From: Calothrix brevissima NIES-22
GTDB lineage: Bacteria > Cyanobacteriota > Cyanobacteriia > Cyanobacteriales > Nostocaceae
Direction: 5' to 3'
DNA length: 40,000 bases
Assembly (NCBI GenBank): GCA_002367995.1
Contig: AP018207.1
Coordinates: 7,935,366-7,975,365 of the forward strand
The notes beneath the pieces were generated by a model. That model had not been told where the DNA came from, ran no database searches, and was given only the letters and a program-made list of their open reading frames with translations. Numbering within the stretch: position 1 is the stretch's first letter; each line of letters starts with the position of its first letter. This document shows positions 2,161 to 28,789 of the stretch, piece after piece. Made by a program: the position numbers and the translations under genes.

Positions 2161-2246
2161 GGGCATGGGGCATGGGGTATGGGGCATTGGGTATAATTTT
2201 CCTAGTCTCTAGTTTCTAGCCCCTAGTCCCTAGCCCCTAGTCCCTA
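2161..2246. repeat. STRR arrays (GGGGCAT x4-5, then CCCTAGY x6) in the nifB-1/fdxN-1 spacer
   Basis: Tandem heptamers read directly. Confidence 0.9.
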
Positions 2247-3692
2247 TTTATCTAAGCCTTCGACATATTGCTCGTAATATTCCAAAGCAACTTTTTCAAT
2301 TACGTCGTAAGCTTCAACAGTCTGTATGCCAGCTTTGTGCAGTTCTTCTTTGGGACAGTTCCCAATTTTGGAGACTAAAACCGCTTTGCAATCTGCGATC
2401 GCTTTAATAATATTGTCTAGAGTGGCTTCTTCTCCAAATCCACCTTGGCAATAGTGGTCTATTTTGCGGTGACTGATAAAGCGTACTTCTTGACCATCCA
2501 CTTCGTAAACCTGGAATTCTTTGGCATGACCGAAGTGTTGGTTAACTAATCCACTACCTTTGGTTGCAACAGCAACGAGAATTTTGGGGTTGTTAGCAAA
2601 TTTCTTGCCAGCTTGCGCCTTTTCTTTGGCTGCTTTTATTTCTTGTTTAAACTTCTCAATACCTTCGTGAACTTCTTGACGTTGTTCTAGGTTATATTCC
2701 GGAGCCATTTCTAGGAATTTATCTTTAGTAAATTCTTGGCTGCGGTCTTCTCCTAATAATCCTACAGCATCGGCTCGGCATTGACGACAGTGGCGCATCA
2801 TTTTCATGTTACCAGCACACTGATCTTGAACTTCTTTGAGTTCTTTAGTACTGGGGCCGCGCTGACCGGTTAAACCGAAGTGTGTGCCGTGTTCTGGTGC
2901 AGAAATCAACGGCATGATGTTGTGCAGGAATGCGCCGTTTTCACGAATGAATTTATTTACTTCTACCAAGTGCTGGTCGTTAATTCCCGGAATCATTACC
3001 GAGTTGACTTTACACAAGATATCGGCTTCTTTGAGGGCTTGTAATCCTTCCATCTGCTTTTCTAGCAGAATTCTTGCTCCCTCAACACCTTTATAACGCT
3101 TGCGCTTGTAGTGAACCCAAGAATAAATCTGTGCGCCGATTTCCGGGTCAATTGTGTTAAGGGTAATAGTAACGTGATCTATATTGAGTTGTTTAATGCG
3201 ATCGACATATTCGGTCAGCATCAAACCATTGGTTGATAAGCACAGTTTAATATCTGGCGCTTTATCTGCAATTAGCTCAAAGGTACGGAAAGTTTTTTCT
3301 GGATTCGCCAACGGATCGCCAGGGCCAGCAATTCCCAAGACTGTCATTTGGGGAATCTTACCTGCAATCACCAATACTTTGTGCGCTGCTTCTTCTGGGG
3401 TGAGTAACTCGCTAACCACTCCAGGACGGCTTTCGTTAGCACAGTCATATTTTCGGTTGCAATAGTTGCATTGAATGTTACAGGCGGGTGCGACTGCAAC
3501 GTGCATTCTTGCGTAGTGGTGGTGTGCGTCTTCGCTATAACAGGGATGCTTGGCAATGCGTTCCTTGAGCTTTTCGTTCATTTCCACGGTGGCGTTGCTT
3601 TTGCTGTCGCATCCGCAACCACCTGATTTGGCTTGGGTAGTGGTGGGTTCCTGATTGGAGGAAGTGAGGAGTCCTGTAGACGGTGGTGTCAT
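2244..3692 (-). CDS. nifB: NifB (radical SAM FeMo-co biosynthesis protein with C-terminal NifX-like domain), copy 1
   Basis: [14 protein letters not shown] radical-SAM motif, conserved NifB core, C-terminal NifX-like domain ([21 protein letters not shown]). Start set at the ATG aligning with copy 2 ([11 protein letters not shown]). The track start at 3704 is 4 codons upstream. Confidence 0.95.
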
Positions 3693-4085
3693 TGAATTTC
3701 GCAAGGGTCGGTGGACTGGCTGCCACTGTGAGAGATGCCGTTGCTACTCTTTATGCCTGGGAATTGAAGTCGCGGCTTCTACTCGTTACTCGCAGGAACT
3801 TACTCTGTTGCGGGGTGATGCTGATGATAACATCAAATATAAGAGTAGGGCAGGCTTACAATCCTTGATTTTCGGCTGGTGTGTGTCAACGTTTGGGTCG
3901 TGGGTAGAATTTGTGCGTACTGAAAGCCGCGACTTCTATTCACAGAGGCATGGTGCTATCTCATCCCTCCACTCACTTTTCGCTTTTGTTTAGAAGCGTT
4001 AAGTGATTGGCGATATATGATTTATAGCAGCCATTTTGGCGATCGCCTGGCTGGTATCTAGGATAGAATTTATTGGATTTATTAA

Positions 4086-5733: not shown

Positions 5734-6129
5734 TCAAGTAAAAGGATTAAGTATAGTAATACCGCATCCCTCGAAATCCTTTGTATTTCTTGTAATTAAA
5801 GTAATTTTGTGGATTTCGGCGGTTGCGGCAATTATCATATCAGCTTGAGAGCGCGGTTTTCCTTGAGTTTGTAGATATCCTCTTACTTCACCCGCACGTT
5901 TAGCAACTTCTGGACTGACATCAATGATTTGACAATAAGTTACTACAAAACTATCAAACCAAGTTTGAATTCTGGGATTGGGTTTTGCTGATAAACCGTA
6001 GTAAATTTCTTCTAAAGTGATAGCGCTAATAAAAATTGATGAGATGCTTTGGCTCCAAGCAATGACACCAGGATTAGGTAATGGACGAGCTAATTCACTG
6101 ATAATGTTAGTATCGCAGAGAAAACTCAT
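5734..6129 (-). CDS. vapC: PIN-domain toxin, VapC family
   Basis: MSFLCDTNIISEL... N-terminal acidic PIN motif, about 130 aa, sits 2 nt downstream of a small antitoxin-sized ORF. Confidence 0.85.
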   Translation of the reverse strand: MSFLCDTNIISELARPLPNPGVIAWSQSISSIFISAITLEEIYYGLSAKPNPRIQTWFDSFVVTYCQIIDVSPEVAKRAGEVRGYLQTQGKPRSQADMIIAATAEIHKITLITRNTKDFEGCGITILNPFT

Positions 6130-6131
6130 AA

Positions 6132-6407
6132 TTATTCATCTGCAAATGGAATTGGGCGATCGCTAGAACGTGTAGGGGTTTCTAAAATATAATTTTCTTC
6201 CGCACAGAGTTGACGTAATTCTGTAAAAGCATCTGCGAGGGAAGAGACTTTTTGTTGTTGATGCCAAGCAAGGAACTCTTGAAACAAATGAGGTTCTACA
6301 ATTGCAGCAACTAATTTGTCTTGCTTGAATATTAATTGAGGTTCTAATGCAATAGCATCAATTACCTCTGGTAGCTTTTGTTGTGCTTCGTCCAGTTTCC
6401 AGTTCAT
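6132..6407 (-). CDS. type II antitoxin (Phd/YefM- or VapB-like) paired with VapC
   Basis: 91-aa ORF immediately upstream of and nearly abutting vapC. The family call is positional plus weak similarity. Confidence 0.65.
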   Translation of the reverse strand: MNWKLDEAQQKLPEVIDAIALEPQLIFKQDKLVAAIVEPHLFQEFLAWHQQQKVSSLADAFTELRQLCAEENYILETPTRSSDRPIPFADE

Positions 6408-6469: not shown

Positions 6470-7165
6470 TTACAAATTATCTGTGTCAATGCCCTGCTGT
6501 TTGAGTTTAGCTAACAACTCTTGATAGCGATCGCGTTCTTTTTGTAATTCCTCTAAAGCTGCTTCCTTTGCTTGGCGTTCTTGTTCCCGTAGCCGATCGA
6601 GTTCTACAGGTGTTAAAAACTTTTGTCCGGCGGGAGAAATAATTTCTAGGGTTTCGGCTGTGAGTTGAAACCGAATTCCTAAACGCGGACTTACCCAATC
6701 ATTCATTTCTTCGATGACTTCAAAACTATCGCCAGAACGGAGTAAGCCATTTAAATCATTCTTAGCCGGATCGTAAATATAATATTCTTCTACGCCGTAA
6801 CGCTGGTAAAACTGCAATTTTTTGGTCATTTCTTTGAGAGTATTACCTGGCGATAGTATTTCAAATACTACCTGGGGCGGAATATTATCTTCCTCCCATT
6901 GTAAATAGGAACCTCGTTTTCCTTTGGGTCTACCAAAGACTACCATCGTATCTGGTGCTTGTTTAATATTCGGGTTTCCTTGAACTGGATACCAAAATAA
7001 ATCTCCGGCGATAAATACATCGACTTGTGATGCAAATAAGATTTCTAAATTTTCTTTAATTTTGACAATCCATGTAAATTGTTCTGTATTATCAGCCACT
7101 GGCTGTCCGTCGCTTTCTGGGTAGATGACTTCGATGGTGGTTTCTGGTGTGACTTGTTGTACCAC
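6470..7165 (-). CDS. Uma2-family (DUF820) putative endonuclease
   Basis: PESDGQP...DLFWYP...PDTMVVFG...VVFEILSPGN...YYIYDP pattern typical of cyanobacterial Uma2 proteins. Apparent GTG start. C-terminal coiled-coil tail. Confidence 0.8.
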   Translation of the reverse strand: MVQQVTPETTIEVIYPESDGQPVADNTEQFTWIVKIKENLEILFASQVDVFIAGDLFWYPVQGNPNIKQAPDTMVVFGRPKGKRGSYLQWEEDNIPPQVVFEILSPGNTLKEMTKKLQFYQRYGVEEYYIYDPAKNDLNGLLRSGDSFEVIEEMNDWVSPRLGIRFQLTAETLEIISPAGQKFLTPVELDRLREQERQAKEAALEELQKERDRYQELLAKLKQQGIDTDNL

Positions 7166-7482
7166 TGCTGCACTTCCAAGTATGGGGTTTTGCTGTTATT
7201 TCTAGTTTAGATAAGGTTGAACCTGTAAATGCATTGCTTTTCAGCAATTTTATGATTGCGTTAGTTGCACAATCCATTGTGAGGGCTGTTGACAGTTAAC
7301 AGCCCATATAAGTAGTTATGCAATTTAGACGCGCATCAGCTTAGAAGTTGGTTAGTTTTGAGCGTGCATCTGCATCTGTTAAGGTTAATTAGTGATTTTT
7401 AATACAATATTTAAAGCTTCACTTAAAGTTCAGTGATTACACTGGTGATAAAACAGACTGCGAGAGGCGAAAGTAAATTTAT

Positions 7483-7496
7483 AAGCAAGCTTGCTT
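7483..7496. promoter_or_regulatory. 14-bp perfect palindrome AAGCAAGCTTGCTT, 35 bp upstream of the small peptide ORF (possible operator)
   Basis: Perfect dyad read directly. The regulatory role is inference. Confidence 0.3.
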
Positions 7497-7530
7497 GTTT
7501 GTAAATTCACCAAAAAAAGAGTAACAATAA

Positions 7531-7695
7531 ATGCAAAGTATCAAAGCATTTTTGGGATCTAAATTTGAAATTGTGCCTGAAATGGCTGAAGGTCACATAG
7601 AATTGACCGAAGCTCAAATGGAAATGCTAAATGGTGGAGAAGAAGGTGAAGGTGGAGACGGGCCACCACCTCCTCCTCCAGAAGAAGGCACTTGA
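7531..7695 (+). CDS. 54-aa peptide: N-terminal region ending ...ELTEAQMEMLNGG, then acidic/Gly/hexaproline tail EEGEGGDGPPPPPPEEGT (candidate RiPP precursor)
   Basis: Hand translation gives MQSIKAFLGSKFEIVPEMAEGHIELTEAQMEMLNGGEEGEGGDGPPPPPPEEGT*. It is below the track's apparent length cut-off (shortest track ORF is 61 aa). Same strand as and 200 bp upstream of the ATP-grasp gene. SD is weak. Confidence 0.45.
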   Translation: MQSIKAFLGSKFEIVPEMAEGHIELTEAQMEMLNGGEEGEGGDGPPPPPPEEGT

Positions 7696-7799
7696 TAAGT
7701 AGAGGAAGACGTACTCTTTAAATAGATTACGAATTCAGTATAGGTGAATAGATTGCCTAGCAATTGAAATCTTCACTCTATTCGTTATTTTAATAGTAC

Positions 7800-7841
7800 A
7801 AAGCCAGTAGCTTACTTCTTTCAGGAGTACTGCTGGCTTTT
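7800..7841 (+). terminator. terminator/attenuator-like hairpin between peptide ORF and ATP-grasp gene
   Basis: AAAGCCAGTAG / CTGCTGGCTTT form an 11-bp stem (one G-U) followed by TTTTG. Confidence 0.4.
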
Positions 7842-7895
7842 GCTCATGTTATCTATATGTCATGCTGAAAATATAAATCAAAAGGAAAAGGAATA

Positions 7896-9731
7896 ATGCG
7901 TTCTATTGGTATCTGCTTTGTCCAGCAAAACCTTCAGCAGATTGGTTATGAAACTTACCAACTTTTCATAGAAGCAGAAAAGCACTATGAGCGCATTATC
8001 CCTATTAATAATCCTCGCTCTATTAGCTATCAATTTATTGAAGGAAATAGCAAACCTAAAGTTATTTTGGATGGACAAGACATCTCAAACCTTGATACCT
8101 TGCTTTTTCGTCAAGGAGGACAGCGTAAATTACCAGCTATTTTTTTGGCACAGACGTTAAATCAGTGTGGTTGTGACATTCTAGATTCTATAGCATGGTA
8201 TACCCCCGAACGAGGTTCTAAGTTAGGTGGAATTCTCAAATATCTAAATCAGGGTTGCGGAATTAATACATACATCGCATTTACCCGAAACAATGGCGCA
8301 GCCTTACTACAAGATTTGGCAAACAATGGGAAATTTCCGCTTATCCTCAAGCCGGTTCATGGTAGCCAAGGTAGAGGAATTCATGTAATTGAAGATCTAG
8401 AAACAGGCTTAGAACTCCTCGATGCTTTTTATGATGATGAACAAGAAAGGGATGAACCTTTCTACTTACAGGAATTTTTGAACATTGAAAAAGAATATCG
8501 AGTTGTTGTTTTAGATGGTAAAGCTATAGGAGCAGCCCAAAAAATAGCTGCTCCTGGGAAGCACACAGCGAATGCTGCACAAGGCGGAACTTTTGTTGCT
8601 GCTGATGTTCCAAATGTGACTGCTGTTACCCTTGAGAATGTAACTAGCAAAGGACTATTTGGCGTAGATGTAGCAGTCGATCAACAAGATAATATTCGGA
8701 TTATTGAGGTAAATCGCATTCCTCAATGGAAAGCATTCAGTGAGGCTACAGGAATCAATGTTGCTCAAGCTATTTTAGAGAACACCCTAGAACAAAATTC
8801 AACAAAATCGGCATTAGGTATTCTCATGCCTAGTAACAGTTATAATCTGCCTTATGAGCTAGATAATTTATATAAAGAAGCACCTAATTATTACAAAGAG
8901 ATTATTTCCATTGAAACTCTTCATTCTATAATTTATAAATTTGTTCGTGGCTCGGAAAAACCCAGCATTTTAATGGGATCAATGGATCTGTCTCTTCTTG
9001 ATACCTGCATTATTCGTGAGAGTCAAAATAGCCCCATTGCCAAAATGCTTCTCGTTCATGCACTTAACGCTTCTGGATGTAACATTATCGATCCCGTTAC
9101 CCATCATTCAGGAGGAGCGGCTTCTAAATTAGGAATCACATTGCGTTATTTCAGAACTGGTTTAGTACCTAGCAATTATGTTGTATTTAACCGCACTAAT
9201 GCCATTAATCTGCTTGAGGAATTGGTAAAAGAAGGGCAACTTCCATTAATTAGCAAAGATATTTTGGGCAGCCAAGGACAGAATGTTGACATTATTACCG
9301 ATATTAGTACCGGAATGCAGATTATTGAAGCTTTTTATCAAAGTGAGGAGGAGAAAGACTATCCTTTTTACTTGCAAACATTAATTCAGATAGAAAAAGA
9401 ATATCGAATTATGTTACTGGACGGTAAAGCAATTGGTATAGCTGAAAAAATACTGAATACCGATCGGGACAATGCAAAAACTTTTGCTGATTATCAGTTT
9501 TGTGCTATTGAAGCATTGGCGATCGCAGAAAAGGTTATTCCTTATGTTAGCCCTAAAGGATTATTGGGAGTCGATATTGCGGTTGATTTTTCGGGCGATC
9601 TCTTTATCCTTGATGTAAATCGTGAACCTGTATGGTACGCATTTGAACAAACAACAGGAGTTAACGTGGCGGCAAAAGTAATTGAGCGGGGTTTAGAACG
9701 TTTAGCTGACAAAGCGCTTCCAGTTGCTTGA
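7896..9731 (+). CDS. fused tandem RimK-type ATP-grasp protein (two modules)
   Basis: Module 1: LILKPVHGSQGRGIHVIED, EYRVVVLDGKAIGAAQK, ANAAQGG, GVDVAV...IIEVNRIPQW. Module 2 repeats the layout: LISKDILGSQGQNVDIITD, EYRIMLLDGKAIGIAEK, GVDIAV...ILDVNREPVW. ATG is preceded by AAGGAA. Confidence 0.8.
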   Translation: MRSIGICFVQQNLQQIGYETYQLFIEAEKHYERIIPINNPRSISYQFIEGNSKPKVILDGQDISNLDTLLFRQGGQRKLPAIFLAQTLNQCGCDILDSIAWYTPERGSKLGGILKYLNQGCGINTYIAFTRNNGAALLQDLANNGKFPLILKPVHGSQGRGIHVIEDLETGLELLDAFYDDEQERDEPFYLQEFLNIEKEYRVVVLDGKAIGAAQKIAAPGKHTANAAQGGTFVAADVPNVTAVTLENVTSKGLFGVDVAVDQQDNIRIIEVNRIPQWKAFSEATGINVAQAILENTLEQNSTKSALGILMPSNSYNLPYELDNLYKEAPNYYKEIISIETLHSIIYKFVRGSEKPSILMGSMDLSLLDTCIIRESQNSPIAKMLLVHALNASGCNIIDPVTHHSGGAASKLGITLRYFRTGLVPSNYVVFNRTNAINLLEELVKEGQLPLISKDILGSQGQNVDIITDISTGMQIIEAFYQSEEEKDYPFYLQTLIQIEKEYRIMLLDGKAIGIAEKILNTDRDNAKTFADYQFCAIEALAIAEKVIPYVSPKGLLGVDIAVDFSGDLFILDVNREPVWYAFEQTTGVNVAAKVIERGLERLADKALPVA

Positions 9732-10186
9732 CGATAACTAAAAGTAACCCCGAAATTTCCAATTTTATTCATAAAACCATAAATAATTATAACATTGTCC
9801 GCATCAGTATTTGTAGATGTTTTACTTACTGATAATTATTCAGTTTGGCAAGATGAAAGATTAACAGCAGAATCCCCCGTCTTCCTGCTGACCGAATTTT
9901 AGATTTTAAATAATGGAATTGAAACTTCAAAATTTTTAATTTTTGTGAGCAAAAATAGAGTTTTTTGCTCGTCTTCGTAACAAAAATAAATAATTATTGT
10001 GGCTCAGAAATCTTCCTGAAGATAGTGTTTTTGTCTGACTGCTCAGGCAATATTTACTAAGAATGGTTTTTTTGGAGAGTAATTTTCACAGTAACAAATA
10101 GCAATAAAATCCCAAAATCAATTGAATTTGAGGCAGATAGCAAATTAACTTATATTACAAAGTCTGGTGATTACAAGGAGAAAGCG

Positions 10187-10681
10187 ATGCCTGCTATAGC
10201 TCTAAATAGCCAAAATCTCCCCTACTCCGACCCCTTACACCCGATTGTTGTGCATTTCGTGATTGCAATGGTGTTTTTCTCATTATTTTGCGATGTGGTG
10301 GGTTATTTCACTCGAAATGCAGGTTTGTTGGAGGTCGGTTTTTGGAATATGTTTGTGGCAGCGATCGCAATTTTTGTCGCGATCATTTTTGGGCAGTTGG
10401 AAGCCGGTTTAGCGCAAGTGTATCCAGCAGTCCAGTCTACAATGAATTTTCACACAGTTATGGGTTGGTCGCTTGGGGCGATAATTGCGGCTATTACAGC
10501 TTGGCGTTTAATCATTCGCGATCGCAACCCCCTGAAAGTTCCTCCTGCTTACCTGGGTGTAGCAACTTTATTAATTTGTCTGGTGTTCTTGCAGGTATAT
10601 TTGGGAAGCAAATTATTTTGGGTATATGGGTTGCATGTTGAACCTGTGGTGCAAGCCATGCAGCAGGGAGTTTCGCCATGA
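10187..10681 (+). CDS. multi-TM membrane protein, DUF2231-like, first gene of the cox operon
   Basis: LHPIVVHFVIAMVF motif and four predicted TM helices. AAGGAG RBS. Stop overlaps the next start (ATGA). Confidence 0.65.
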   Translation: MPAIALNSQNLPYSDPLHPIVVHFVIAMVFFSLFCDVVGYFTRNAGLLEVGFWNMFVAAIAIFVAIIFGQLEAGLAQVYPAVQSTMNFHTVMGWSLGAIIAAITAWRLIIRDRNPLKVPPAYLGVATLLICLVFLQVYLGSKLFWVYGLHVEPVVQAMQQGVSP

Positions 10682-11283
10682 ATTCTCAACTCCTTGACTC
10701 TTTAGGATTGAGATTAGGCGCTAACGGATTACCATACGAAATTCCTCTGCATCCACAGTTAGTCCATTTCACCTTGGGTTTGTTTATCATCGGCATCTTG
10801 TTTGATATAGCAGGCGCTATTTTTCCGGTTGAAAGACCAATTTTCAAATTTTTAGCTCTTCCCGCCATCCGTTCTGGCTTCTTTAATGTCGGTTGGTACA
10901 ACCTGTTAGGAGCAGCTGTGGTGACATTTTTTACCGTCGCCTTTGGCTTTTTCGAGCTACTGCTAGCAAACCCACTATTAGATAAAAAAAGTGCTTGGGG
11001 ATTAAATGCCTCCTGGACAATGCTTTTGCATGGTTTGGGCGGTGTTTTCTTGTTGACAGTGATTGTGGCGATGACTGTCTGGAGAGGCTTACAACGCTAT
11101 CGCTGGCGCAAGAATGCTTCCAGACAAGTGCAGTGGAGTTACTTATTAGCAGGTATTGCCATTTTAGGGATTTTGTATGTTCACGGAACTTTAGGCGCAC
11201 ATTTAGGAGAGGCGTTTGGCATTCACGTAACAGCAGCTCAGTTAATCCAAGAGGGCAAAAACCCAAATTTACTAACCAAATAA
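10678..11283 (+). CDS. multi-TM membrane protein, DUF2231-like paralogue
   Basis: LHPQLVHFTLGLFI motif and TM helices. Translationally coupled to the upstream paralogue. Ends 6 nt before coxB. Confidence 0.65.
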   Translation: MNSQLLDSLGLRLGANGLPYEIPLHPQLVHFTLGLFIIGILFDIAGAIFPVERPIFKFLALPAIRSGFFNVGWYNLLGAAVVTFFTVAFGFFELLLANPLLDKKSAWGLNASWTMLLHGLGGVFLLTVIVAMTVWRGLQRYRWRKNASRQVQWSYLLAGIAILGILYVHGTLGAHLGEAFGIHVTAAQLIQEGKNPNLLTK

Positions 11284-11289
11284 AATATT

Positions 11290-12219
11290 ATGGGGAGATT
11301 TTTAGAATATATACTCATAGCTGCTTATATTGCCGTCCTGCTTGTTGTCAGTCATGGGATTGGGCAGTTAGCTTATTCTTGGATGCCTCTGGAAGCTACA
11401 GCCGAAGCGCAAAAGGTAGATAGTTTATTTAGCTTTTTAACCTCAATTGGTGCGTTCATTATTCTTGGGCTTCTAGGCATGATGCTGTACTCGGTAATTT
11501 TCTTTCGCGCACCCAAAAATGATTACAGTGAAGGACATCCATCTAGAGGCGATGTCAAACTCGAATTTTTATGGACGGCGACTCCAACCATACTGGTATT
11601 GTGGATTGCTTTCCAAGGCTTCAATATTTATCAGCAATTAGATATTCTCGGTTTGCAGCAAATCGTACATTTGCATACACCTCTAGATTCAGAACCAGCC
11701 TATGCAGCAGCTAGCGCAGACCAACTTAAACCAGCAGCTGAAACTGTTGAGGTTTTCGTCAAGCAGTGGGATTGGACTTTTCGCTATCCCAATAATATTA
11801 CTAGCAATGAATTGCATTTACCTGTAAATCTTCGGACTCGACTGAATATGCACGCTCAGGACGTACTTCATAGTTTTTATGTCCCTGAGTTCCGCTTACA
11901 ACAGTATATTGTGCCTGGACGAAACATTGACCTTGTAGTTACACCGACTCGTACAGGTGAATACAAACTCAAAGATGCATTATTTAGCGGTACTTACTTT
12001 GCTTTGATGGATGCCAATGTTCAAGTGGAATCCCTTGACCAATATAACCAGTGGCTGAGTCAAGCCCAACAAAAACCAACAACCATTAAAAATCAAGCTG
12101 TCGCTGAATATACCCAACCGCCAAAAACATTCTTTAAGAGCAACTGGTACAGTGTTGCACCTGCTCAAGAAGCGATCGCCAATGAAAGGAAAGAAAGGAA
12201 AGTAATGAATGACACATGA
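11290..12219 (+). CDS. coxB: heme-copper oxidase subunit II lacking CuA ligands (ARTO / quinol-oxidase-type CoxB)
   Basis: DVLHSFYVPEFRLQQYIVPGR is present. Where CAELCGxxHxxM is expected the sequence reads KDALFSGTYFALM, so both Cys and the second His are replaced. Confidence 0.9.
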   Translation: MGRFLEYILIAAYIAVLLVVSHGIGQLAYSWMPLEATAEAQKVDSLFSFLTSIGAFIILGLLGMMLYSVIFFRAPKNDYSEGHPSRGDVKLEFLWTATPTILVLWIAFQGFNIYQQLDILGLQQIVHLHTPLDSEPAYAAASADQLKPAAETVEVFVKQWDWTFRYPNNITSNELHLPVNLRTRLNMHAQDVLHSFYVPEFRLQQYIVPGRNIDLVVTPTRTGEYKLKDALFSGTYFALMDANVQVESLDQYNQWLSQAQQKPTTIKNQAVAEYTQPPKTFFKSNWYSVAPAQEAIANERKERKVMNDT

Positions 12220-12378
12220 ATCTCAGGAAATGATCGCCATTGAGCAAGAGTCTAGTGGTCTGTCCCATTAATTTTGAGTGGTAAAAAACGAACCGCGTTC
12301 GACGAAGTCGTTCCCGCAGGGTAGACACGAAGTACTCGAAGGAAGAGACAAGAAGAAGAAACTTACCCCACATAATTA

Positions 12379-14013
12379 ATGAGACAAAGCACTAGTAATA
12401 ACTGGCGACAATATTTTAGCTTTAGTACTGACCATAAAGTAATTGGCGTTCAGTACATGGTGACGACTTTCATATTCTTTCTGATTGGCGGACTTTTGGC
12501 GATGCTGATCCGTGCCGAACTGATTACGCCAGCATCAAATGTAGTCGATCGCTCCCTGTACAACGGCTTGTTTACTTTGCATGGGACAATCATGATTTTT
12601 TTATGGATTATCCCATTCAATGCAGGTATCTCTAACTACTTAGTACCTCTGATGATTGGCGCACGAGATATGGCGTTTCCTCTCCTCAATGCCATATCTT
12701 TCTGGATAATTCCTCCCAGTGGACTGTTATTAATATCTAGCTTCTTTTTACCCAATGGTACAGCCCAGTCTGGTTGGTGGTCTTATCCGCCAATTAGTCT
12801 GCAAGTTCCTCCCAATCAGCCAATTAACGGTGAATTTATTTGGATTGTAAGTATAGTCCTGATTGGTATCTCTTCGGTTATGGGGGCTGTCAACTTTGTG
12901 ACCACTATCTTTTGGATGCGGGCACCAGGAATGACATTTTTCCGAATGCCTGTGTTTGTTTGGTCGGTTCTCAGCGCCCAGTTGTTGCAGCTAGTGAATT
13001 TGCCTTCTTTAACTGGTGCATTAATCCTACTGTTATTTGACCTCAACTTTGGGACGAATTTTTTCAAACCTTTAGAAAATGGCGACCCCATCATTTACCA
13101 GCATTTATTCTGGTTCTACTCCCACCCTGCAGTGTATATCATGGCACTACCAGCCTTCGGGATTTTTGCGGAAATTTTACCAGCCTTTTCCCGTAATCCT
13201 TTATTTGGCTATCGCTCATTAGCGATCGCCTCTTTAGGCATTGCGGTAGTTAGCATCTTTGTCTGGGTGCATCATATGTTCACCAGTGCTACCCCTGGTT
13301 GGATGCGGATGTTATTTATGGTGACATCAATGTTAGTTGCTGTACCCACTGGTGTAAAAGCATTTGGTTGGACTGCGACAATTTGGAGAAGTAAGCTGCA
13401 TTTAGAAACACCCATGCTATTTGCAATGGGAGGTGCAGCCATGTTTCTGCTTGGTGGTGTCACTGGTGTCATGCTAGCAGCAGTACCATTTGATATTCAC
13501 GTTCATAATACCTACTTTATAGTCGGGCATTTTCACTACATTGTCTTTAACACCATCACAATGGCAATCTTTGCTGCCATTTACTTTTGGTTTCCCAAGA
13601 TAACTGGACGAATGTATGCAGAAGGCTGGGGAAAGGTACATTTTTGGTTAACCTTTATCGGTGCTAACCTAACTTTCTTCCCGATGCTTCCACTAGGTTT
13701 ACAAGGAATGGTACGCCGCATTTCCTCCTACGATCCGCGTTATCAAGGATGGAATGTTGTTGCTAGTTTGGGAGGATTTTTATTAGGAGTATCAATACTA
13801 CCTTTTATTGCCAATATGGTAGGTTCTTGTTTATACGGGCAAAAAGCCAGTAACAATCCCTGGCTCGCCACAGGGCTGGAATGGACAACTACCTCACCCC
13901 CTCCCCGAGAAAACTTTGAAGAAATACCAATTGTCAAAAGACCCCCTTATGACTATGGCGATACTAAATACTCAGTAATTGAACCTCCCGACTATCATCA
14001 GGCAAGGGAGTAG
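12379..14013 (+). CDS. coxA: heme-copper oxidase subunit I
   Basis: HLFWFYSHPAVYI, VWVHHMF and GHFHYIV metal-ligand motifs, 12 TM-type hydrophobic pattern. Confidence 0.95.
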   Translation: MRQSTSNNWRQYFSFSTDHKVIGVQYMVTTFIFFLIGGLLAMLIRAELITPASNVVDRSLYNGLFTLHGTIMIFLWIIPFNAGISNYLVPLMIGARDMAFPLLNAISFWIIPPSGLLLISSFFLPNGTAQSGWWSYPPISLQVPPNQPINGEFIWIVSIVLIGISSVMGAVNFVTTIFWMRAPGMTFFRMPVFVWSVLSAQLLQLVNLPSLTGALILLLFDLNFGTNFFKPLENGDPIIYQHLFWFYSHPAVYIMALPAFGIFAEILPAFSRNPLFGYRSLAIASLGIAVVSIFVWVHHMFTSATPGWMRMLFMVTSMLVAVPTGVKAFGWTATIWRSKLHLETPMLFAMGGAAMFLLGGVTGVMLAAVPFDIHVHNTYFIVGHFHYIVFNTITMAIFAAIYFWFPKITGRMYAEGWGKVHFWLTFIGANLTFFPMLPLGLQGMVRRISSYDPRYQGWNVVASLGGFLLGVSILPFIANMVGSCLYGQKASNNPWLATGLEWTTTSPPPRENFEEIPIVKRPPYDYGDTKYSVIEPPDYHQARE

Positions 14014-14016
14014 AGG

Positions 14017-14078
14017 GCAGGGGGACAAGGGGGACAAGGGGGACAAGGGGGACAAGGGGGACAAGGAGGACAAGGGGG
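14017..14078. repeat. tandem nonamer array (GGGGGACAA x6-7)
   Basis: Read directly in the coxA-coxC spacer. Confidence 0.9.
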
Positions 14079-14088
14079 AAAATTGTAC

Positions 14089-14108
14089 AGACGCGATTCA
14101 TCGCGTCT
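14089..14108. repeat. dispersed hairpin AGACGCGA-TTCA-TCGCGTCT (copy 1 of 2)
   Basis: Identical hairpin with the same AATTGTA-AG 5' flank at 34005..34024. Both follow nonamer arrays. Confidence 0.8.
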
Positions 14109-14115
14109 CTGATAA

Positions 14116-14802
14116 ATGACTAATGACCAAAATATGAACCGTGGCGTAATTCATGTAGATGAAAGTCCTATCCCTTTAGAACGGTTGCGGCGATACCTAC
14201 CAAATTGGCTCAAGCGTTTTTTGCCAGTGCGGGGTGGAAGTGCTGAAGATCATCATGGTAAAGGGATGTTCGGATTTACCGTGTTTCTATTATCAGAAAG
14301 CATAGTCTTTTTGAGCTTTATTTTTACCTACATTGCTCTGCGATTAACACATTCAGGAAATTGGCTACCATCTGGTGTTTCGGGGCCAGAATTGTCTACT
14401 TTTGTAATTATTAATACGGTGGTGTTACTTTGTAGCAGCTTTGTGATTCAGCCAGCAGAAAATGCTCTCAAACATGGCAGGTTAGTGAGGTTTCGTTGGC
14501 TGTGGTTGATGACAATTTGTATGGGAACCTATTTCTTAATCGGTCAAGGAATTGAGTGGAGCAACCTTAATTTTGGGTTAAGTACAGGTTTAGTTGGTGC
14601 GACATTTTATGTATTAACAGGTTTTCACGGTCTACATGTTCTCACTGGTGTCATTCTACAAATTACTATGCTTGTTCGCTCCTTCAGACAAGGGAACTAC
14701 GAAAAAAGCCACTTTGGTGTGAGTGCTAGCACTTTGTTTTGGCACTTTGTTGATCTAATGTGGATTTTTCTTTTCTCTCTTCTCTATCTTTGGCAAGCTT
14801 AA
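14116..14802 (+). CDS. coxC: heme-copper oxidase subunit III
   Basis: FYVLTGFHGLHVLTGV and FWHFVDLMWIFLF motifs. Confidence 0.9.
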   Translation: MTNDQNMNRGVIHVDESPIPLERLRRYLPNWLKRFLPVRGGSAEDHHGKGMFGFTVFLLSESIVFLSFIFTYIALRLTHSGNWLPSGVSGPELSTFVIINTVVLLCSSFVIQPAENALKHGRLVRFRWLWLMTICMGTYFLIGQGIEWSNLNFGLSTGLVGATFYVLTGFHGLHVLTGVILQITMLVRSFRQGNYEKSHFGVSASTLFWHFVDLMWIFLFSLLYLWQA

Positions 14803-18122: not shown

Positions 18123-20993
18123 TTAAACCTTATTTTCTTCTTTGCGCCTTTGCGCCTTTGCGTGAGATAAAATACCCTCTTCTTCTGCCTCAAGAAATAA
18201 GTTGCCAATATCAAACAACATTTGAATAGTTCCCCGATAACCGACAGTACAACGCTGTCCATTACCCAAGCGGTCAAAAACAGGGAAACCGAGACGATAG
18301 TGAGGAGTATGCAGACGGCGAGTGATCGCTTTACCATGAGAATTAGCGATCGCTAGATCCGAACCTACCGCTAATCGCTCAAAATCTTCCAAATCCCCAA
18401 TAGTCACGCTTTCTACTGGCAAGTTTTCTAACAGTGGCGACTTTGTGGTTGTCACTGCGGCGTGAATTTCCGCACCCATCGATTGCAAAAACCAAGCTGT
18501 TGACCACAATAAATCAGGTTCCAGTGCTAACGACACCCGCTTACAGCCAAAGTAAAAGTGAGTATCAAGCATCGCATCTTGTAACTGACGGCGTTGATGG
18601 CAATATTTTTCTGGAACTGCATTCCCACTAATATCTACCAGTCCTTGCAAAAAGTTATCGACTGCGCCTAATCCTGTTAGTTGGGGAAACACCTCAAAAG
18701 GTATATCAAACTGAGTTTGCAAACTTTCGGCTGCACCGCGCATACTCTCGCCTAGCGCGAGGGTAAACACCGAACTACCCATTTCTCGCAGTTCTGGTAA
18801 AGTTGTTCCACCACCAGTCACCGCACTGTAAGAATCATCCAAGTGACCGTCAAGGGAAGTAGAAAGGTCGGGTACTACAATCGGTTTTAAGCCAAAAGCA
18901 GAGACAATTTCTTTAATTTCTTGGACATCCCCAGGAGTAAACGCAGAACTTACCAAAATATTGATTTGGTCTAATCTGGTTTCTCCCGGTTGCGGCAATT
19001 CCTTAACTATACTTTCCACGGCGGCGGCGAAACCATCTTGCAACGCACCTTTAAAATCAGGCGTAGAAGCAAAGACAATCGGCAAGTCATATAATTCTGG
19101 GTGACGCTTGCGAATACTTCTGAGGATTCCTTCCATGTCATCCCCTCTAGTTTCCGTGAGTCCGGTAGTTAACAAACCGATAATCTCTGGCTTGGATTTC
19201 TCTACCAGCGTCAGGATTGCTTGCTCGATATTTTCCTCGCCACCTAAAATAGTGCTAACTTCCGTCATGGCAGTGGTGGATAGGGGAATAGCTTCCCGAA
19301 AATGCCGCACTAACATAACTTTGGCGAACGCAGTACAACCCTGAGAACCATGAAACAAAGGCATTATGCCCTTCAATCCCAAAAATGCTAAAGCTGCACC
19401 TAAAGGTTGACTTTGCTTCAAAGGATTCACCGCAACCGACTTGGAAGAATTTTGGATTTTAGATTTTGGAGCCACTGCGTTGCGGTGAGGCAGTCCGTTG
19501 CGGGGGTTCCCCCCGTTGAAGGAACTGCCGAACCCGTAAGGGAGGTTCCCTCCGTTGTAGCAAGTGGCGTGATTTTGGATTGAAATTGCTTCCTCTGCTC
19601 CCCTGCTCCCTTGCTCCCCTGCTCCCTCCTCCCAGAATGCCGGCTTCCGCACCTGCGCCCATACCGGACTGTGCAAAGCTTCATCCAGTTCTCGCGCCAT
19701 TTCCACCATACCCACATATCCCGCATAGGGATGATGGCGTTCTTGATTAATATCTAAAAATGGGATACGGGCTTTGAGGGCAGTGTATTGATTGCGACCA
19801 CCAGCAATCAGCATATCCGCTTTTGTCTGGGCAATCACCCGGAGTAATTCTTGGGCGTTGCCTTTTTCCATAGCAATGCCATCTTTTCCTAGTAATTCTT
19901 TGATCCTCGCTTTATCTTCTTCAGTACTTTTTTTAGTGCTAGTGGCGACAACTTCCATGCCTAAGTCCTTAGCCGCCGATATAATCGACCAACTTTTCAC
20001 ACCCCCGGTATAAAGGACAACCCGCTTATCTTTGAGGCGATCGCGGTAACGAGCCAAAGCAATATCTAGCGCAGTAGTTTCTTCTGTAATTAAATTTTCT
20101 ACTCTTTCTTGTAAACTTTGGTCGCCTAACTTCGCGGCAATATTCCGCAAACAGCGATTCATGTCATCTACACCATAGAAAGATTCTTCAATATAAGGGA
20201 TACCATAACGCTCCTCCATCTTTCGCGCCACATTAATCAGGGCTTTGGAGCAAATCATCACATTCAGCTTGGCACGGTGAGCATAACGCACTTCATTATA
20301 CTTAGCATCACCCGTAATTTTAGCGAGAACGCGAATACCTAATTTTGCAAATAAGGGCAGAACACCCCACAATTCACCTGCAATGTTGTACTCACCAATC
20401 AAATTAATATCATAAGGGGTGGTATATTCTGGTTCAGCAGTTCCGATAACATATTCTAGTAAAGCTTCCCCACCGACGCGATTACCCAGATTTTTACTGC
20501 CAATAAAACCAGGGGAATTTACGGGGATAACAGGTATACCTGTTTTCTTAGCTGCCGCTTCACAGACTGTATCCAAATCATCGCCAATCAGCGCCGTCAC
20601 ACAAGTGGAGTAAACAAACACCGCCGCCGGGTGATAGCGTTGCTGTACTTCCAAAATTGCCTTGTAAAGCTTCTTTTCGCCACCGAAGATGATATCATTT
20701 TCACTTAAATCAGTCGTGAAACCCATTTTGTAGAGATGAGAATCAGAGGAAAGACTACCACGACCACCCCAAGAATTACCAGCGCAAGGGATCGGCCCGT
20801 GGACTAAATGAGCAGCATCGGTAATCGGGACTAGGGCGATGGATGCACCATCGAAAGCACAGCCTCCTTGAGCCGCACCGGGTTGGGCTTGTTGGTGACA
20901 AGACTTGTTTTTCTTCTGCCCATGCTTGTGGTGATTGTGTTCGCATCCTGGTTCACTCAGCAGCTCGTTAATTTTGCCTTGGGTGATTTTCAT
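18123..20993 (-). CDS. nifEN: fused NifE-NifN FeMo-co scaffold protein
   Basis: N-terminal half is NifE (MKITQGKINELLSEPGCEHN, CAFDGA, YSTCVTALIGDD). C-terminal half is NifN (VNPLKQSQPLGAALAFLG, GSQGCTAFAKV). One open frame runs through a 67-codon repeat-derived linker. ATG at 20993; the track start at 21014 is a TTG. Confidence 0.9.
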   Translation of the reverse strand: MKITQGKINELLSEPGCEHNHHKHGQKKNKSCHQQAQPGAAQGGCAFDGASIALVPITDAAHLVHGPIPCAGNSWGGRGSLSSDSHLYKMGFTTDLSENDIIFGGEKKLYKAILEVQQRYHPAAVFVYSTCVTALIGDDLDTVCEAAAKKTGIPVIPVNSPGFIGSKNLGNRVGGEALLEYVIGTAEPEYTTPYDINLIGEYNIAGELWGVLPLFAKLGIRVLAKITGDAKYNEVRYAHRAKLNVMICSKALINVARKMEERYGIPYIEESFYGVDDMNRCLRNIAAKLGDQSLQERVENLITEETTALDIALARYRDRLKDKRVVLYTGGVKSWSIISAAKDLGMEVVATSTKKSTEEDKARIKELLGKDGIAMEKGNAQELLRVIAQTKADMLIAGGRNQYTALKARIPFLDINQERHHPYAGYVGMVEMARELDEALHSPVWAQVRKPAFWEEGAGEQGSRGAEEAISIQNHATCYNGGNLPYGFGSSFNGGNPRNGLPHRNAVAPKSKIQNSSKSVAVNPLKQSQPLGAALAFLGLKGIMPLFHGSQGCTAFAKVMLVRHFREAIPLSTTAMTEVSTILGGEENIEQAILTLVEKSKPEIIGLLTTGLTETRGDDMEGILRSIRKRHPELYDLPIVFASTPDFKGALQDGFAAAVESIVKELPQPGETRLDQINILVSSAFTPGDVQEIKEIVSAFGLKPIVVPDLSTSLDGHLDDSYSAVTGGGTTLPELREMGSSVFTLALGESMRGAAESLQTQFDIPFEVFPQLTGLGAVDNFLQGLVDISGNAVPEKYCHQRRQLQDAMLDTHFYFGCKRVSLALEPDLLWSTAWFLQSMGAEIHAAVTTTKSPLLENLPVESVTIGDLEDFERLAVGSDLAIANSHGKAITRRLHTPHYRLGFPVFDRLGNGQRCTVGYRGTIQMLFDIGNLFLEAEEEGILSHAKAQRRKEENKV
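19431..19631 (-). repeat. in-frame linker of nifEN built from intergenic-type repeats (octamer/heptamer arrays plus a GC-rich double-hairpin element)
   Basis: CTGCTCCC-type array at 19594..19633, GATTTTR heptamers at about 19450..19470 and 19571..19587, and hairpins GGGGG-TT-CCCCC and GGAGG-TTC-CCTCC at about 19480..19560. Confidence 0.85.
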
Positions 20994-21055
20994 GACTTGA
21001 TGGGTGATTGGCAATCAAATTTCTGGTTTTTCTTCCTTCTCTCTTCCTTGGCGTA

Positions 21056-21575: not shown

Positions 21576-23114
21576 TCATCGAATCAAGTCGTAGGAAATA
21601 TCGGTCTTGGATGGAATAATGGTGTTGCGATCCAACTCATCTAGGAGAGTGTTAACAATCCAGTTGAGTAGGTTGATTGTGCCTTGGTAGCCGTAGGTAG
21701 CGTAGCGGTGCAGGTGGTGACGATCAAAGATGGGGTAGCCAATGCGCACAAATGGGGTTTTGGTGTCACGCCAGAGATACTTACCGTAGGAATTGCCGAT
21801 GAGCAAGTCTACAGGTTCGGTAAATAGGAGCGATCGCATATGCCATAAGTCGCGTCCGCCGTGAATTGTTGCACCTTGACCAAATGGGCTAGAGTCAAGT
21901 AATGCTCGCAATTCTGCCTCAAAATGTTCGTTGCTATTGCTGACAAGGATGTGAACTGGTTCCGCACCTACTTCTAATAAGAATTGGGTTAAACCAATCA
22001 CCAAATCGGGATCGCCATACATCGCCACCAGCTTGCCGTGCAACCATGCTTGAGAATCGGTCAATGCATCTACTGCGCGTCCCCGTTCATCTTCTAATTC
22101 TTGGGGAATTGGCTTACCAGTTAACGCGGACAATTTCATCAAGAATTCATCAGTACCGCGAATGCCGACAGGACGGTTAACGTAAGTCTTTTGATGCCAT
22201 TCGTGTTCGATGTACTCGCGAGTTTTGGTAGTAGCGTAAGCTTGGAGTGCGATCGTGGCTTCAGCATTAATCGAATCAGCCGCATCTTCTAGCTTAGTTC
22301 CACCTGGATACATATTATATGTACCGTTATTCGGAGAATCCAGGTATTCAGAGTTATCTGCTAACAGGGTATAGTCAATTCCCATCACATTAGCAATCCG
22401 CTTGATTTCTCGCAGGTTGCCAATGTAGGTTTCAAACCCAGGAATAAAGTTAATTTTGCCGTTGGTTGTTTCTTTCTTCTTACCTGCTGTCAAATTCGAC
22501 AGAATCCCCTTCATCATGTTGTCGTAGCCTGTGATGTGTGACCCAACAAAGCTAGGGGTATGGGCATAAGGCACAGGAAAGTTTTCAGGAACAGACTCAT
22601 TTTCTTTGGCGGTTTTGATAAAAGCTTGCAAGTCATCCCCAATTACCTCTGCCATACAGGTAGTACAGACAGCAATCATTTTCGGCTTATACAGGTTGTA
22701 AGAAACTGCCAAACCTTCAATCAGGTTTTTCAAACCGCCGAATACGGCTGCATCTTCCGTCATCGAGGAAGATACGGCAGAAAACGGTTCTTTAAAGTGG
22801 CGGGTGAAGTGACTGCGGAAGTAAGCAACACAACCTTGAGAACCATGTACAAAAGGTAGCGTACCTTCAAAACCAACGGCAGCTAAAATTGCTCCTAGAG
22901 GTTGGCAAGCCTTCGCTGGGTTAACGGTTAACGCTTGACGGGCAAAGTTCTTTTCGCGGTATTCCCAGGTTTTTGTCCACTCAGCCATCTGGGTAACTTG
23001 TTCAGATTCATGCCCACATTCAAACTCTTTCTTGGCTTGAAATAGCTCTTGGTATTCCTGCTGTTGAAAAAGTTCGGCGTGATCTTTGATTTTGTTGATG
23101 TCGTTTTGTGCCAT
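21576..23114 (-). CDS. nifK: nitrogenase MoFe protein beta chain
   Basis: GSQGCVAYFRSHF, CTTCMAEVIGDD and HTPSFVGSH motifs, 512 aa. Confidence 0.97.
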   Translation of the reverse strand: MAQNDINKIKDHAELFQQQEYQELFQAKKEFECGHESEQVTQMAEWTKTWEYREKNFARQALTVNPAKACQPLGAILAAVGFEGTLPFVHGSQGCVAYFRSHFTRHFKEPFSAVSSSMTEDAAVFGGLKNLIEGLAVSYNLYKPKMIAVCTTCMAEVIGDDLQAFIKTAKENESVPENFPVPYAHTPSFVGSHITGYDNMMKGILSNLTAGKKKETTNGKINFIPGFETYIGNLREIKRIANVMGIDYTLLADNSEYLDSPNNGTYNMYPGGTKLEDAADSINAEATIALQAYATTKTREYIEHEWHQKTYVNRPVGIRGTDEFLMKLSALTGKPIPQELEDERGRAVDALTDSQAWLHGKLVAMYGDPDLVIGLTQFLLEVGAEPVHILVSNSNEHFEAELRALLDSSPFGQGATIHGGRDLWHMRSLLFTEPVDLLIGNSYGKYLWRDTKTPFVRIGYPIFDRHHLHRYATYGYQGTINLLNWIVNTLLDELDRNTIIPSKTDISYDLIR

Positions 23115-23184
23115 AATAGTAATTCTTCAAGCTTTGAAAGTAATCAGTTCAAGGTCTGAGAAAACAACAATTTTGATGTCTAGT

Positions 23185-23220
23185 TATGAGTTTTGAATGC
23201 TAGAAAATTCAAAACTCATA
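23185..23220 (-). promoter_or_regulatory. 14-bp perfect stem-loop immediately downstream of the nifD stop (intercistronic RNA structure)
   Basis: TATGAGTTTTGAAT, 8-nt loop, ATTCAAAACTCATA. Confidence 0.6.
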
Positions 23221-23226
23221 GCTTTT

Positions 23227-24880: not shown

Positions 24881-25846
<966 letters not shown>

Positions 25847-27064: not shown

Positions 27065-27068
27065 GAGC

Positions 27069-27185: not shown

Positions 27186-27186
27186 A

Positions 27187-28758: not shown

Positions 28759-28789
28759 GGTCAACAGTCAACGGTCAACAGTCAACAGT
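28759..28789. repeat. STRR array (TCAACRG) containing the nifB-2 stop codon
   Basis: The NifB-2 tail ...EKTVDC* and its TGA are read from the heptamer array. Confidence 0.85.

Follow-up and report, generated by a model that had tools for sequence, protein, structure and literature searches.

The ATP-grasp ligases ArgX, LysX and RimK act on small proteins with an acidic C-terminal tail: they activate a carboxylate of the tail by phosphorylation and attach an amino acid to it. To our knowledge, the ATP-grasp enzymes of ribosomal peptide natural products either make rings, as in graspetides, or join a building block to the N-terminus, as in pheganomycin, and the known C-terminal extension of scaffold peptides (PEARLs) needs aminoacyl-tRNA. 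Here, we analyse a two-gene locus in a 40,000-nucleotide stretch (the window) of the 8.5-Mb chromosome of the cyanobacterium Calothrix brevissima NIES-22, in which a 54-residue peptide with a double-glycine leader and an acidic core is encoded upstream of a 611-residue protein that consists of two ATP-grasp modules. The gene content of the locus, its pattern of conservation, the family and fold affinity of the enzyme, and its intact catalytic residues are described below. The locus very probably represents a leader-guided system for a modified or exported peptide.

The fused form of the ligase belongs to a single cluster at 50% identity, as determined by a word-indexed search of 5.8 billion proteins and an exhaustive HMMER search. 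It occurs in five distinct lineages: NIES-22; Calothrix sp. FACHB-1219 and its relatives (contigs L009 and L010); the Logan assemblies L001 and L002; and a metagenomic cyanobacterium represented by at least seven contigs, among them L003–L007 and L025 (the L003 lineage). In each of the five lineages, exactly one small open reading frame (ORF) is positioned directly 5′ of the gene for the fused ligase, whereas none was found in the other loci examined. Every one of these ORFs encodes an acidic Gly-Gly peptide, with polyproline in three lineages. The enzymes are 75–96% identical per module across the lineages, while the cores of the peptides differ completely. A leader and an enzyme that are both conserved, together with a core that is hypervariable, are the signature of a leader-guided peptide-modification system. 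This pattern lends support to the initial annotation of the locus, made from the nucleotide sequence alone, as a candidate novel system resembling those for peptides that are synthesized on ribosomes and modified after translation (RiPPs). A profile search of 5.8 billion proteins for further precursor diversity returned three clusters only, and a scan of metagenome DNA detected only the already known L003 variant.

The peptide of NIES-22 (MQSIKAFLGSKFEIVPEMAEGHIELTEAQMEMLNGG-EEGEGGDGPPPPPPEEGT) is encoded by an ATG-initiated ORF at 7531..7695 on the forward strand and is split into a 36-residue leader and an 18-residue core. The initial annotation had proposed this ORF and called the peptide unannotated. 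The ORF is real: its quoted translation is exact and it is conserved 5′ of every fused homologue. The peptide is missing from the ORF track only, and GenBank holds it as the hypothetical protein NIES22_63330 (BAY66220.1). The leaders of the other lineages are MQTIKAFLGSKFEIVAEMAEGHMELTEAQMEMLNGG (FACHB-1219), MQTIKALLGSEFKIVPEIAEGQMELTDAQMEMLNGG (L001), MQTIKTLLGSQFEIVAEVAEGHIELTDTQMETLCGG (L002) and MAIIKSFLGSQFEVVAETAEGHIELTDDEMALLCGG (L003). Nineteen columns of the leader are invariant in an alignment of four lineages, and the pairwise ratios of nonsynonymous to synonymous substitution rates (dN/dS) are 0.13–0.38, with dS of up to 1.65. Therefore, the leader is translated and constrained. 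It ends with Leu at position −12, Gln or Glu at −8, Met at −7, Leu at −4, and Gly-Gly at −2/−1. The pattern Leu(−12)/(−7)/(−4)/GG was defined for ComA and is seen in the co-crystal of LahT150, a recognition pattern of peptidase-containing ATP-binding transporters (PCATs) that the last 13 residues of the leader match (PMC6363468). The proposed double-glycine leader end is supported by the residue pattern and by the C39 exporters of the full cassettes described below. About 13 C-terminal leader residues are enough for a C39 peptidase (PMC6363468); because of this, the N-terminal half of the leader, which is equally conserved (MQxIKxxLGSxFExV.E.AEG), needs another reader, and the ligase is the obvious candidate. 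The peptide has no match in Pfam or NCBIfam, the Nif11 and NHLP models included.

The cores of the precursors are EEGEGGDGPPPPPPEEGT in NIES-22, EEGEGSGGPPPPPPEEGT in FACHB-1219, EAIEEVVTEFTPIEE in L001, SVNTPAEEVAPAEEVAPEEYEYP in L002 and EGGGGEVTPPPPPPEEDW in L003, and they cannot be aligned with each other except for a Pro/Glu-Glu motif. In all five lineages, the core contains 5–7 acidic residues and no Lys, Arg or His, and the motif Pro-x(0-1)-Glu-Glu is positioned 0–4 residues from the C-terminus (PPEEGT, PIEE, APEEYEYP, PPEEDW). Acidic cores with a conserved Glu-Glu near the C-terminus resemble the tails of S6 and LysW. At least one Ser or Thr is present in every core, at positions that are not conserved; the sole hydroxyl residue of the window core is its C-terminal Thr, two residues past the Glu-Glu. 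The window core contains a hexaproline run and ends in Gly-Thr, and the window peptide lacks Cys. Polyproline is absent from the precursors of two of the five lineages. Among cyanobacterial peptides, we know of no obvious counterpart that combines such an extreme negative charge with a rigid rod of polyproline.

The ligase (7896..9731, forward strand; 100% identical to BAY66221.1) matches the RimK Pfam domain and the rimK_fam model TIGR00768 in two stretches. Residues 1–304 and 305–611 are 38% identical over their whole length with a single gap, and the protein is therefore an internal duplication of a complete ATP-grasp unit, in agreement with the two tandem RimK-like modules recognized at the outset. 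Module 1 contains the residues K109, K152, Q192, E200, R202, K216, D258, E271 and N273 and the loop HTANAAQGG. The corresponding Lys, Gln, Glu, Arg, Asp and Asn positions are retained in module 2 except that Glu271 is replaced by Asp; the ATP-binding Lys and the Mg-binding Asp/Glu/Asn triad are thus present in module 1 and, with this substitution, in module 2. The loop of module 2 reads AKTFADYQ in place of ANAAQGG, a replacement conserved among the orthologues (F-A/T-D-Y/C-Q/S-F). Neither loop matches the R-S/A-N...G-G loop of RimK, LysX and ArgX: the Arg is replaced in module 1 (HTANAAQGG) and the Gly-Gly is lost from module 2 (RDNAKTFADYQ). ANAAQG(G) is the hallmark of the wider family and takes the place of the R-S/A-N-x-x-x-G-G of RimK, LysX and ArgX. 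Among orthologues, dN/dS is 0.12–0.23 for module 1 and 0.15–0.27 for module 2. Because module 2 is under purifying selection, it is functional, and it is either a second catalyst with a different specificity or a peptide-binding unit.

The best NCBIfam matches of the ligase are rimK_fam, MptN and LysX, and its closest relatives of known structure by sequence are ArgX (3vpb), the RimK proteins of Pseudomonas and E. coli, and LysX. By contrast, the ligase reaches 27.4 bits on TIGR04187, the profile hidden Markov model of graspetide maturases, which has a cutoff of 350, and module 1 alone falls under the listing threshold. The AlphaFold2 model of the ligase, with a mean predicted local distance difference test score of 85.9 and a predicted TM-score of 0.83, contains two complete ATP-grasp units. 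The top matches in a Foldseek comparison with the PDB are ArgX–LysW, LysX/ArgX–LysW and RimK, including RimK–RpsF, with E-values of 9e-16 to 4e-13 and target TM-scores of 0.52–0.62, whereas PsnB and PruB, which are graspetide ligases, are listed from rank 37 onwards, with E-values of about 1e-11 and target TM-scores of 0.47–0.52. Judged from sequence and predicted structure, the ligase groups with RimK, LysX and ArgX and not with the graspetide macrocyclases. Of the two chemistries suggested initially, graspetide formation and the addition of Glu tails, the graspetide type is therefore the less likely, while the underlying affinity to RimK stands.

The polyglutamylation of S6 (RpsF) by RimK shares with this locus a ligase from the same branch of the ATP-grasp superfamily and an acceptor that is an acidic tail with Glu-Glu. 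Unlike RimK, the ligase described here is a fused duplicate with modules that each fall short of the family cutoff and lack the Arg of the RSN motif, and its presumed substrate is a dedicated, leader-bearing and exporter-linked peptide instead of a ribosomal protein. A genuine rimK accompanied by rimB occurs separately, beside single-module relatives of the ligase in Microcoleus. The similarity to the LysW–LysX/ArgX system extends to a partner of about 54 residues with an acidic tail that is encoded beside the ligase and, if the chemistry proposed below is correct, to an amide bond to a tail carboxylate. However, the peptide has neither a zinc finger nor an invariant C-terminal Glu, and it carries a Gly-Gly leader linked to a dedicated exporter. 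On the LysX model TIGR02144, the ligase reaches 77.7 bits, where the cutoff is 275.6, and no genes of the LysZ/Y/J/K type are found nearby, where the neighbours are the exporter and HlyD genes or unrelated genes. Graspetides such as microviridins and plesiocin, made by MdnB/MdnC and PsnB, also derive from precursors with a leader and a core modified by ATP-grasp enzymes, and some of their clusters encode two ligases. Some graspetide precursors have Gly-Gly motifs and C39 peptidases (PMC8939145). The ligase described here is from a different ATP-grasp clade, and the cores lack the conserved ring pattern of Thr/Ser/Lys and Asp/Glu. PEARLs and the eukaryotic TTL/TTLL enzymes are functional analogues that extend peptides or acidic tails after ATP-dependent activation of a carboxylate (PMC11962472; PMC4431377). 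Neither group is closely related to the ligase in sequence, and PEARLs are LanB-like and need aminoacyl-tRNA.

In three lineages (L009/L010, L001 and L002), the peptide–ligase pair is flanked by genes for a C39-peptidase ATP-binding cassette (ABC) exporter and an HlyD-type adaptor. The exporter is a 714-residue ABC transporter with an N-terminal Peptidase_C39 domain, which has the motifs of an active enzyme (QHNQEDCGAAC, HW and GDP, with the Gln, Cys, His and Asp residues); the adaptor is 471–481 residues long and of the HlyD/AprE type. Between L009 and L002, the exporters share 94% identity and the HlyD adaptors 72%. The exporter gene is divergent and upstream in L009 and L001, and downstream of the HlyD gene in L002, and thus the four genes stay together through rearrangement. 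Full cassettes are found on mobile DNA, in L009 with a relaxase, NikA, ParA/ParB and Prim-Pol, and in L001 with an integrase and ParA. The Leu(−12)/(−7)/(−4)/GG leader, the active-type C39 domain and the HlyD adaptor are shared with double-glycine export by PCATs, or ABC transporter maturation and secretion proteins, which serves class II bacteriocins and Nif11/NHLP peptides; unlike in those systems, the leader matches no Pfam or NCBIfam model and the modifying enzyme is a RimK-like double ligase. Clusters of the double-glycine/C39 kind are widespread in cyanobacteria, and the words ATP-grasp, ligase and RimK are never used in the paper that describes them (PMC3140520).

The NIES-22 copy is shorter. 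Its homology to the cassette of FACHB-1219 (L009 9810-12255) is 91.5% at the nucleotide level and limited to a stretch of about 2.4 kb, with the right edge 34 bp past the ligase stop codon, just before the HlyD start in L009, and the left edge about 210 bp short of the start of the divergent exporter (PCAT). Since the edges of the homology coincide exactly with the boundaries of the exporter and HlyD genes, NIES-22 carries a precise two-gene fragment, and by this comparison the window copy is a truncated version of the cassette, with precursor and ligase retained and exporter and adaptor missing. The 40-kb window contains no exporter: apart from the ligase, only a nitrogenase-type protein is encoded by an ORF of at least 600 residues. 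The window ORFs scanned include no HlyD; the other large ones comprise nif, DUF2231, toxin-antitoxin, Uma2, dehydrogenase and glycosyltransferase genes. This agrees with the statement of the initial annotation that a leader peptidase and an exporter are missing from the window; both occur in the full cassettes of the three other lineages. A search of a plasmid database with the 2.4-kb segment gave no match.

The locus may be the biosynthetic core for a ribosomally made, post-translationally modified and secreted peptide. The precursor, the translation of which is indicated by the purifying selection on its leader, would consist of the leader and the acidic, hexaproline core. The N-terminal half of the leader would dock on, or recruit, the double ligase. 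With ATP, the ligase would phosphorylate a carboxylate of the core, either in the Pro-x-Glu-Glu motif or at the C-terminal α-carboxylate, and the acyl-phosphate would then react with the amino group of a free amino acid, giving one or several amide-linked additions. This ligation is modelled on the activity of RimK on ribosomal protein S6 and of LysX/ArgX on LysW, and the step is suggested by the family and fold affinity of the enzyme together with the composition of the cores; Glu is the default guess for the donor, by analogy with RimK, MptN, CofF and ArgX. Module 1 has the complete active site of the family; module 2, with its ATP and Mg residues and a different substrate loop, might perform a second, different ligation or hold the peptide. 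In the full cassettes, the C39 exporter would cut after the Gly-Gly (Gly36) and export the product with the help of the HlyD-type adaptor, as suggested by gene linkage, the C39 residues and the leader motif. NIES-22 has the precursor and ligase only, and export would therefore need an exporter encoded elsewhere, or else the pair is an orphan. The reading as a whole, a RiPP-like system in which the ligase adds one or more amino acids to the Glu-Glu or C-terminal carboxylates of the core before cleavage and export, is the one that we favour, with modest confidence.

Several observations weigh against this reading. The proposed bond type and amine donor derive from the family and fold affinity of the ligase. 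TIGR00768 scores 94.8 bits for module 1 and 66.6 bits for module 2 against a curated cutoff of 143.4, so that the 157.2 bits of the whole ligase are the sum of two sub-threshold stretches and the enzyme is RimK-like, not RimK proper. Throughout the family, another residue stands in place of the Arg of the RimK "RSN" motif, and the specificity may therefore differ from that of every characterised relative. The Ser or Thr residues in every core are compatible with ester formation. The residues that follow the Glu-Glu differ between lineages (GT, none, YEYP and DW), which leaves the exact acceptor site ambiguous. The window copy has no exporter and adaptor. In the L003 lineage (L003 6001-7842; also L004–L007 and L025), the ligase gene is interrupted by a single in-frame stop at codon 340, where Glu is changed to stop, and is for this reason reported by gene callers as proteins of 339 and 254 residues. 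The rest of the ligase frame is intact and the precursor is retained, with no exporter nearby, and the nonsense codon implies that some copies may be decaying. Beside single-module relatives of the ligase, no such peptide was found in the loci and the tblastn search described below, and the link to a peptide can therefore not be generalised to the wider family.

It is unlikely that the ligase instead forms rings in the manner of MdnC/MdnB or PsnB, joining core Ser/Thr hydroxyls to Glu/Asp carboxylates in side-chain esters with no amino acid added. An ATP-grasp enzyme would fit the logic of RiPP biosynthesis, the pair of modules is reminiscent of the two ligases in microviridin pathways, each core offers at least one Ser/Thr and many Glu/Asp, and PsnB and PruB are detectable as structural relatives. 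However, the score on the graspetide maturase model is far below its cutoff, RimK, LysX and ArgX are ahead by about four orders of magnitude in E-value and have higher TM-scores, and the cores have no Lys and no conserved Ser/Thr positions, with the C-terminal Thr as the only hydroxyl residue in the window core. That ArgX and LysX, which load amino acids onto the 54-residue carrier LysW, are the top sequence and fold matches also invites an explanation in which the peptide is a carrier of the LysW or PEARL type, on the acidic tail of which an amino acid is attached, elaborated and released. The peptide is of the same size as LysW and has an acidic tail, and the C-terminal aminoacylation of scaffold peptides exists in PEARL pathways (PMC11962472). 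Nevertheless, we consider a carrier very unlikely: no cassette contains tailoring or releasing enzymes, the only conserved partners being the exporter and adaptor; zinc-finger cysteines are missing from the peptide; the Gly-Gly leader and the C39 peptidase suggest that the peptide itself is exported; and an attachment tail would be expected to be conserved, whereas the core is hypervariable.

Two further explanations dispense with a secreted product. A run of six prolines is a strong ribosome-stalling motif, and a stable hairpin separates the two ORFs, so that the small ORF could be a regulatory element that stalls ribosomes and, with the hairpin, tunes the expression of the ligase, the peptide itself being functionless. 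This is extremely unlikely, because polyproline is lacking in two of the five lineages, conservation is seen in the N-terminal 36 residues with the Gly-Gly exporter motif and not in the Pro run, the hairpin begins 105 nucleotides past the stop codon, and a dedicated C39 exporter is linked to the pair. For the NIES-22 copy only, and compatible with the favoured reading of the family, there is a lesser though appreciable chance that it is an inactive relic: part of a mobile cassette that inserted in the chromosome and, having no exporter, has ceased to give a secreted product. The homology to the plasmid cassette ends exactly at the exporter and HlyD boundaries, full cassettes are on plasmid-like or integrase-bearing contigs, toxin-antitoxin and Uma2 genes are neighbours in the window, and the L003 lineage likewise has no exporters and a nonsense codon in the enzyme. 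However, both window ORFs are intact, dN/dS between NIES-22 and FACHB-1219 is 0.16 for the leader, 0.12 for module 1 and 0.19 for module 2, and the conserved upstream block and the hairpin are kept. Nostocales genomes usually carry several C39 ABC exporters, and those encoded elsewhere in the genome could act in trans.

The features of the segment are listed in Table 1. The block upstream of the precursor genes has many invariant columns in an alignment of the upstream regions (CTTCAC.TAAA.TTCAGTGATTACAC.G.TGA.AAAACAG). A 17-nucleotide motif within it, AAAGTTCAGTGATTACA (7425-7441), recurs with three mismatches at 10159-10175, just 5′ of the first DUF2231 gene. The perfect palindrome just upstream of the peptide ORF, noted in the initial annotation, exists and was considered as an operator, which was rejected: the window contains six perfect 14-bp palindromes where 2.45 are expected, and in L009, the closest orthologue, an insertion interrupts this one, while L001, L002 and L003 lack it. 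The hairpin between the genes, described as terminator-like, has a stable fold (−24.4 kcal/mol, z = −4.6 relative to shuffled sequences). A simple terminator scan did not call it, because only four U follow. The same stem is present in L009 and L001, and thus in three of the five lineages with NIES-22, whereas L002 and L003 have a different, weaker structure; the intergenic region has no Rfam match at E-values of up to 1. The hairpin may stabilise the precursor mRNA or raise the ratio of precursor to enzyme, and the latter role is plausible.

Table 1 Positions in the window of the features of the peptide–ligase segment
Feature	Position	Strand	Basis or remark
Segment homologous to the mobile four-gene cassette	7342..9765	+	holds promoter region, precursor and double ligase only
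Conserved block 5′ of the precursor gene in all five lineages; candidate promoter or regulatory site	7416..7462	+	alignment
Perfect 14-bp palindrome AAGCAAGCTTGCTT	7483..7496	none	probably non-functional
Leader (36 residues, MQSIKAFLGSKFEIVPEMAEGHIELTEAQMEMLNGG)	7531..7638	+	conservation, dN/dS, Gly-Gly exporter-recognition pattern
Core (EEGEGGDGPPPPPPEEGT) and stop codon	7639..7695	+	hypervariable between lineages, acidic
Stem-loop in the precursor–ligase intergenic region; candidate attenuator, or 3′ end that stabilises the mRNA	7800..7841	+	folding energy
ATP-grasp module 1 (residues 1-304), full family motif set	7896..8807	+	HMM, conserved residues
ATP-grasp module 2 (residues 305-611) and stop codon, diverged duplicate	8808..9731	+	HMM, identity to module 1

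The fragment is an insertion inside a nitrogen-fixation region and sits between toxin-antitoxin/Uma2 genes and a DUF2231–cox operon. Its left flank consists of a gene for a PIN-domain (VapC-like) protein with a 91-residue upstream partner, and a gene for an Uma2-family endonuclease (5734-6407 and 6470-7165, both on the reverse strand), which fits an insertion hotspot or mobile context. On the right, at 10187-11283 and 11290-14802 on the forward strand, two tandem DUF2231 membrane proteins are encoded directly 5′ of predicted ORFs that, read by eye, resemble cytochrome oxidase subunits, and a short tandem repeat at about 13964-14119, after a 544-residue ORF, gives PLVPLVPLV and GDKGDKGDK in ORF translations. 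The ORFs of the nitrogen-fixation region are at 2244-3704, 18123-21014, 21576-24714, 24881-25777, 26126-28383 and 28775-30235 on the reverse strand and 32176-33315 on the forward strand. They include two NifB-like ORFs (radical SAM and Nitro_FeMo-Co), NifD/K-like proteins, NifH, NifU, NifS and homocitrate synthase, as well as a 963-residue ORF with two nitrogenase component-1 stretches that resembles a NifE–NifN fusion.

The nearest relatives of the fused ligase are not housekeeping ligases with a known non-peptide substrate but single modules of about 300 residues, which form about 55 representative clusters at E < 1e-30, or 95 proteins at 90% clustering. They are from Bacteroidota, cyanobacteria, Acidobacteriota and other groups, and none has been characterised. 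No convincing Gly-Gly/acidic precursor was found near them with a crude regular expression in 11 genome loci and by reading of a Microcoleus locus, and a tblastn search with the leaders detected none beside them. Because their contexts are heterogeneous and show no such ORF, the association with peptide and exporter is specific to the fused form of Nostocales.

These contexts are varied in content. In Planktothrix paucivesiculata PCC 9631 (L012 5995-8144), a single-module relative is convergent with a homologue of MATCAP, the microtubule-associated tyrosine carboxypeptidase formerly called DUF1704, and lies beside a 921-residue AAA-TPR protein. The relative and the MATCAP homologue resemble a couple of ligase and carboxypeptidase that serves C-terminal tails. 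In Emticicia, the relative adjoins a Gln_deamidase_2 protein. Metagenome-assembled genomes of Bacteroidales (L015, L016, L018, L020 and L021; for example L018 1097-9538) have single-module relatives in a conserved operon for a MacB-type ABC system (an ATPase and two FtsX permeases), a LolA-like protein, a 302-residue radical SAM protein, the ATP-grasp protein and DUF434/DUF5616, with an S9 prolyl-oligopeptidase gene on the opposite strand. No precursor was identified in this operon, which may represent a different peptide-modification system. Two paralogues of 322 and 312 residues flank a 243-residue protein with no Pfam match in Microcoleus sp. FACHB-831 (L022 4251-8720), an arrangement also seen in L024, and their locus immediately adjoins a genuine rimB–rimK pair. 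In Larkinella ripae (L023 4854-6930), a TIR-domain gene overlaps the start of the ATP-grasp gene. More distant relatives are fused to TIR (P0019 and P0152) or to PGA_cap (CapA-like) domains, the proteins concerned also including P0067, P0110, P0131 and P0136, and another double ATP-grasp protein exists among them (P0140). The fusions suggest roles in conflict systems and polyglutamate-type chemistry in other branches of the family, and the links to MATCAP and PGA_cap hint weakly at a role of the family in glutamyl chemistry or on C-terminal tails. In a search with the PADLOC models of anti-phage defence, neither the ligase nor the peptide gave a match, and only the TIR partner of a distant relative did so.

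The Gly-Gly leader, C39 ABC exporter, HlyD adaptor and ATP-grasp fold are known kinds of parts; their combination, the clade and fused architecture of the enzyme, and the acidic/polyproline core appear to be new. A census of graspetides names RimK only as something to distinguish from graspetide ligases (PMC8939145). No description of the peptide/double-ligase system was found in the full text of open-access papers and bioRxiv preprints, an absence that is no proof of novelty. We tentatively propose, as a possibility that is open to considerable doubt, that the system represents a new class of RiPPs, in which a leader-guided, tRNA-independent double ligase of the RimK/LysX type appends amino acids, in the form of oligo-Glu tails or side-chain branches, at the Pro-x-Glu-Glu motif of an acidic or polyproline peptide that is secreted, with the modules dividing the work, for example as initiator and elongator or on two adjacent Glu residues. 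If this is true, the system would be a bacterial, exported counterpart of the modification code of tubulin tails or S6 tails.

The small size of the system makes the question directly testable in E. coli. Confirmation of the predicted chemistry would establish a new RiPP class and a new logic of modification, in which the acidic tail of a leader-bearing, exported peptide is aminoacylated by a RimK/LysX-type ligase with ATP only. The pair would then also be a compact two-gene tool for leader-directed peptide extension, and the peptide would represent the first substrate class for the approximately 95 uncharacterised RimK-like proteins.

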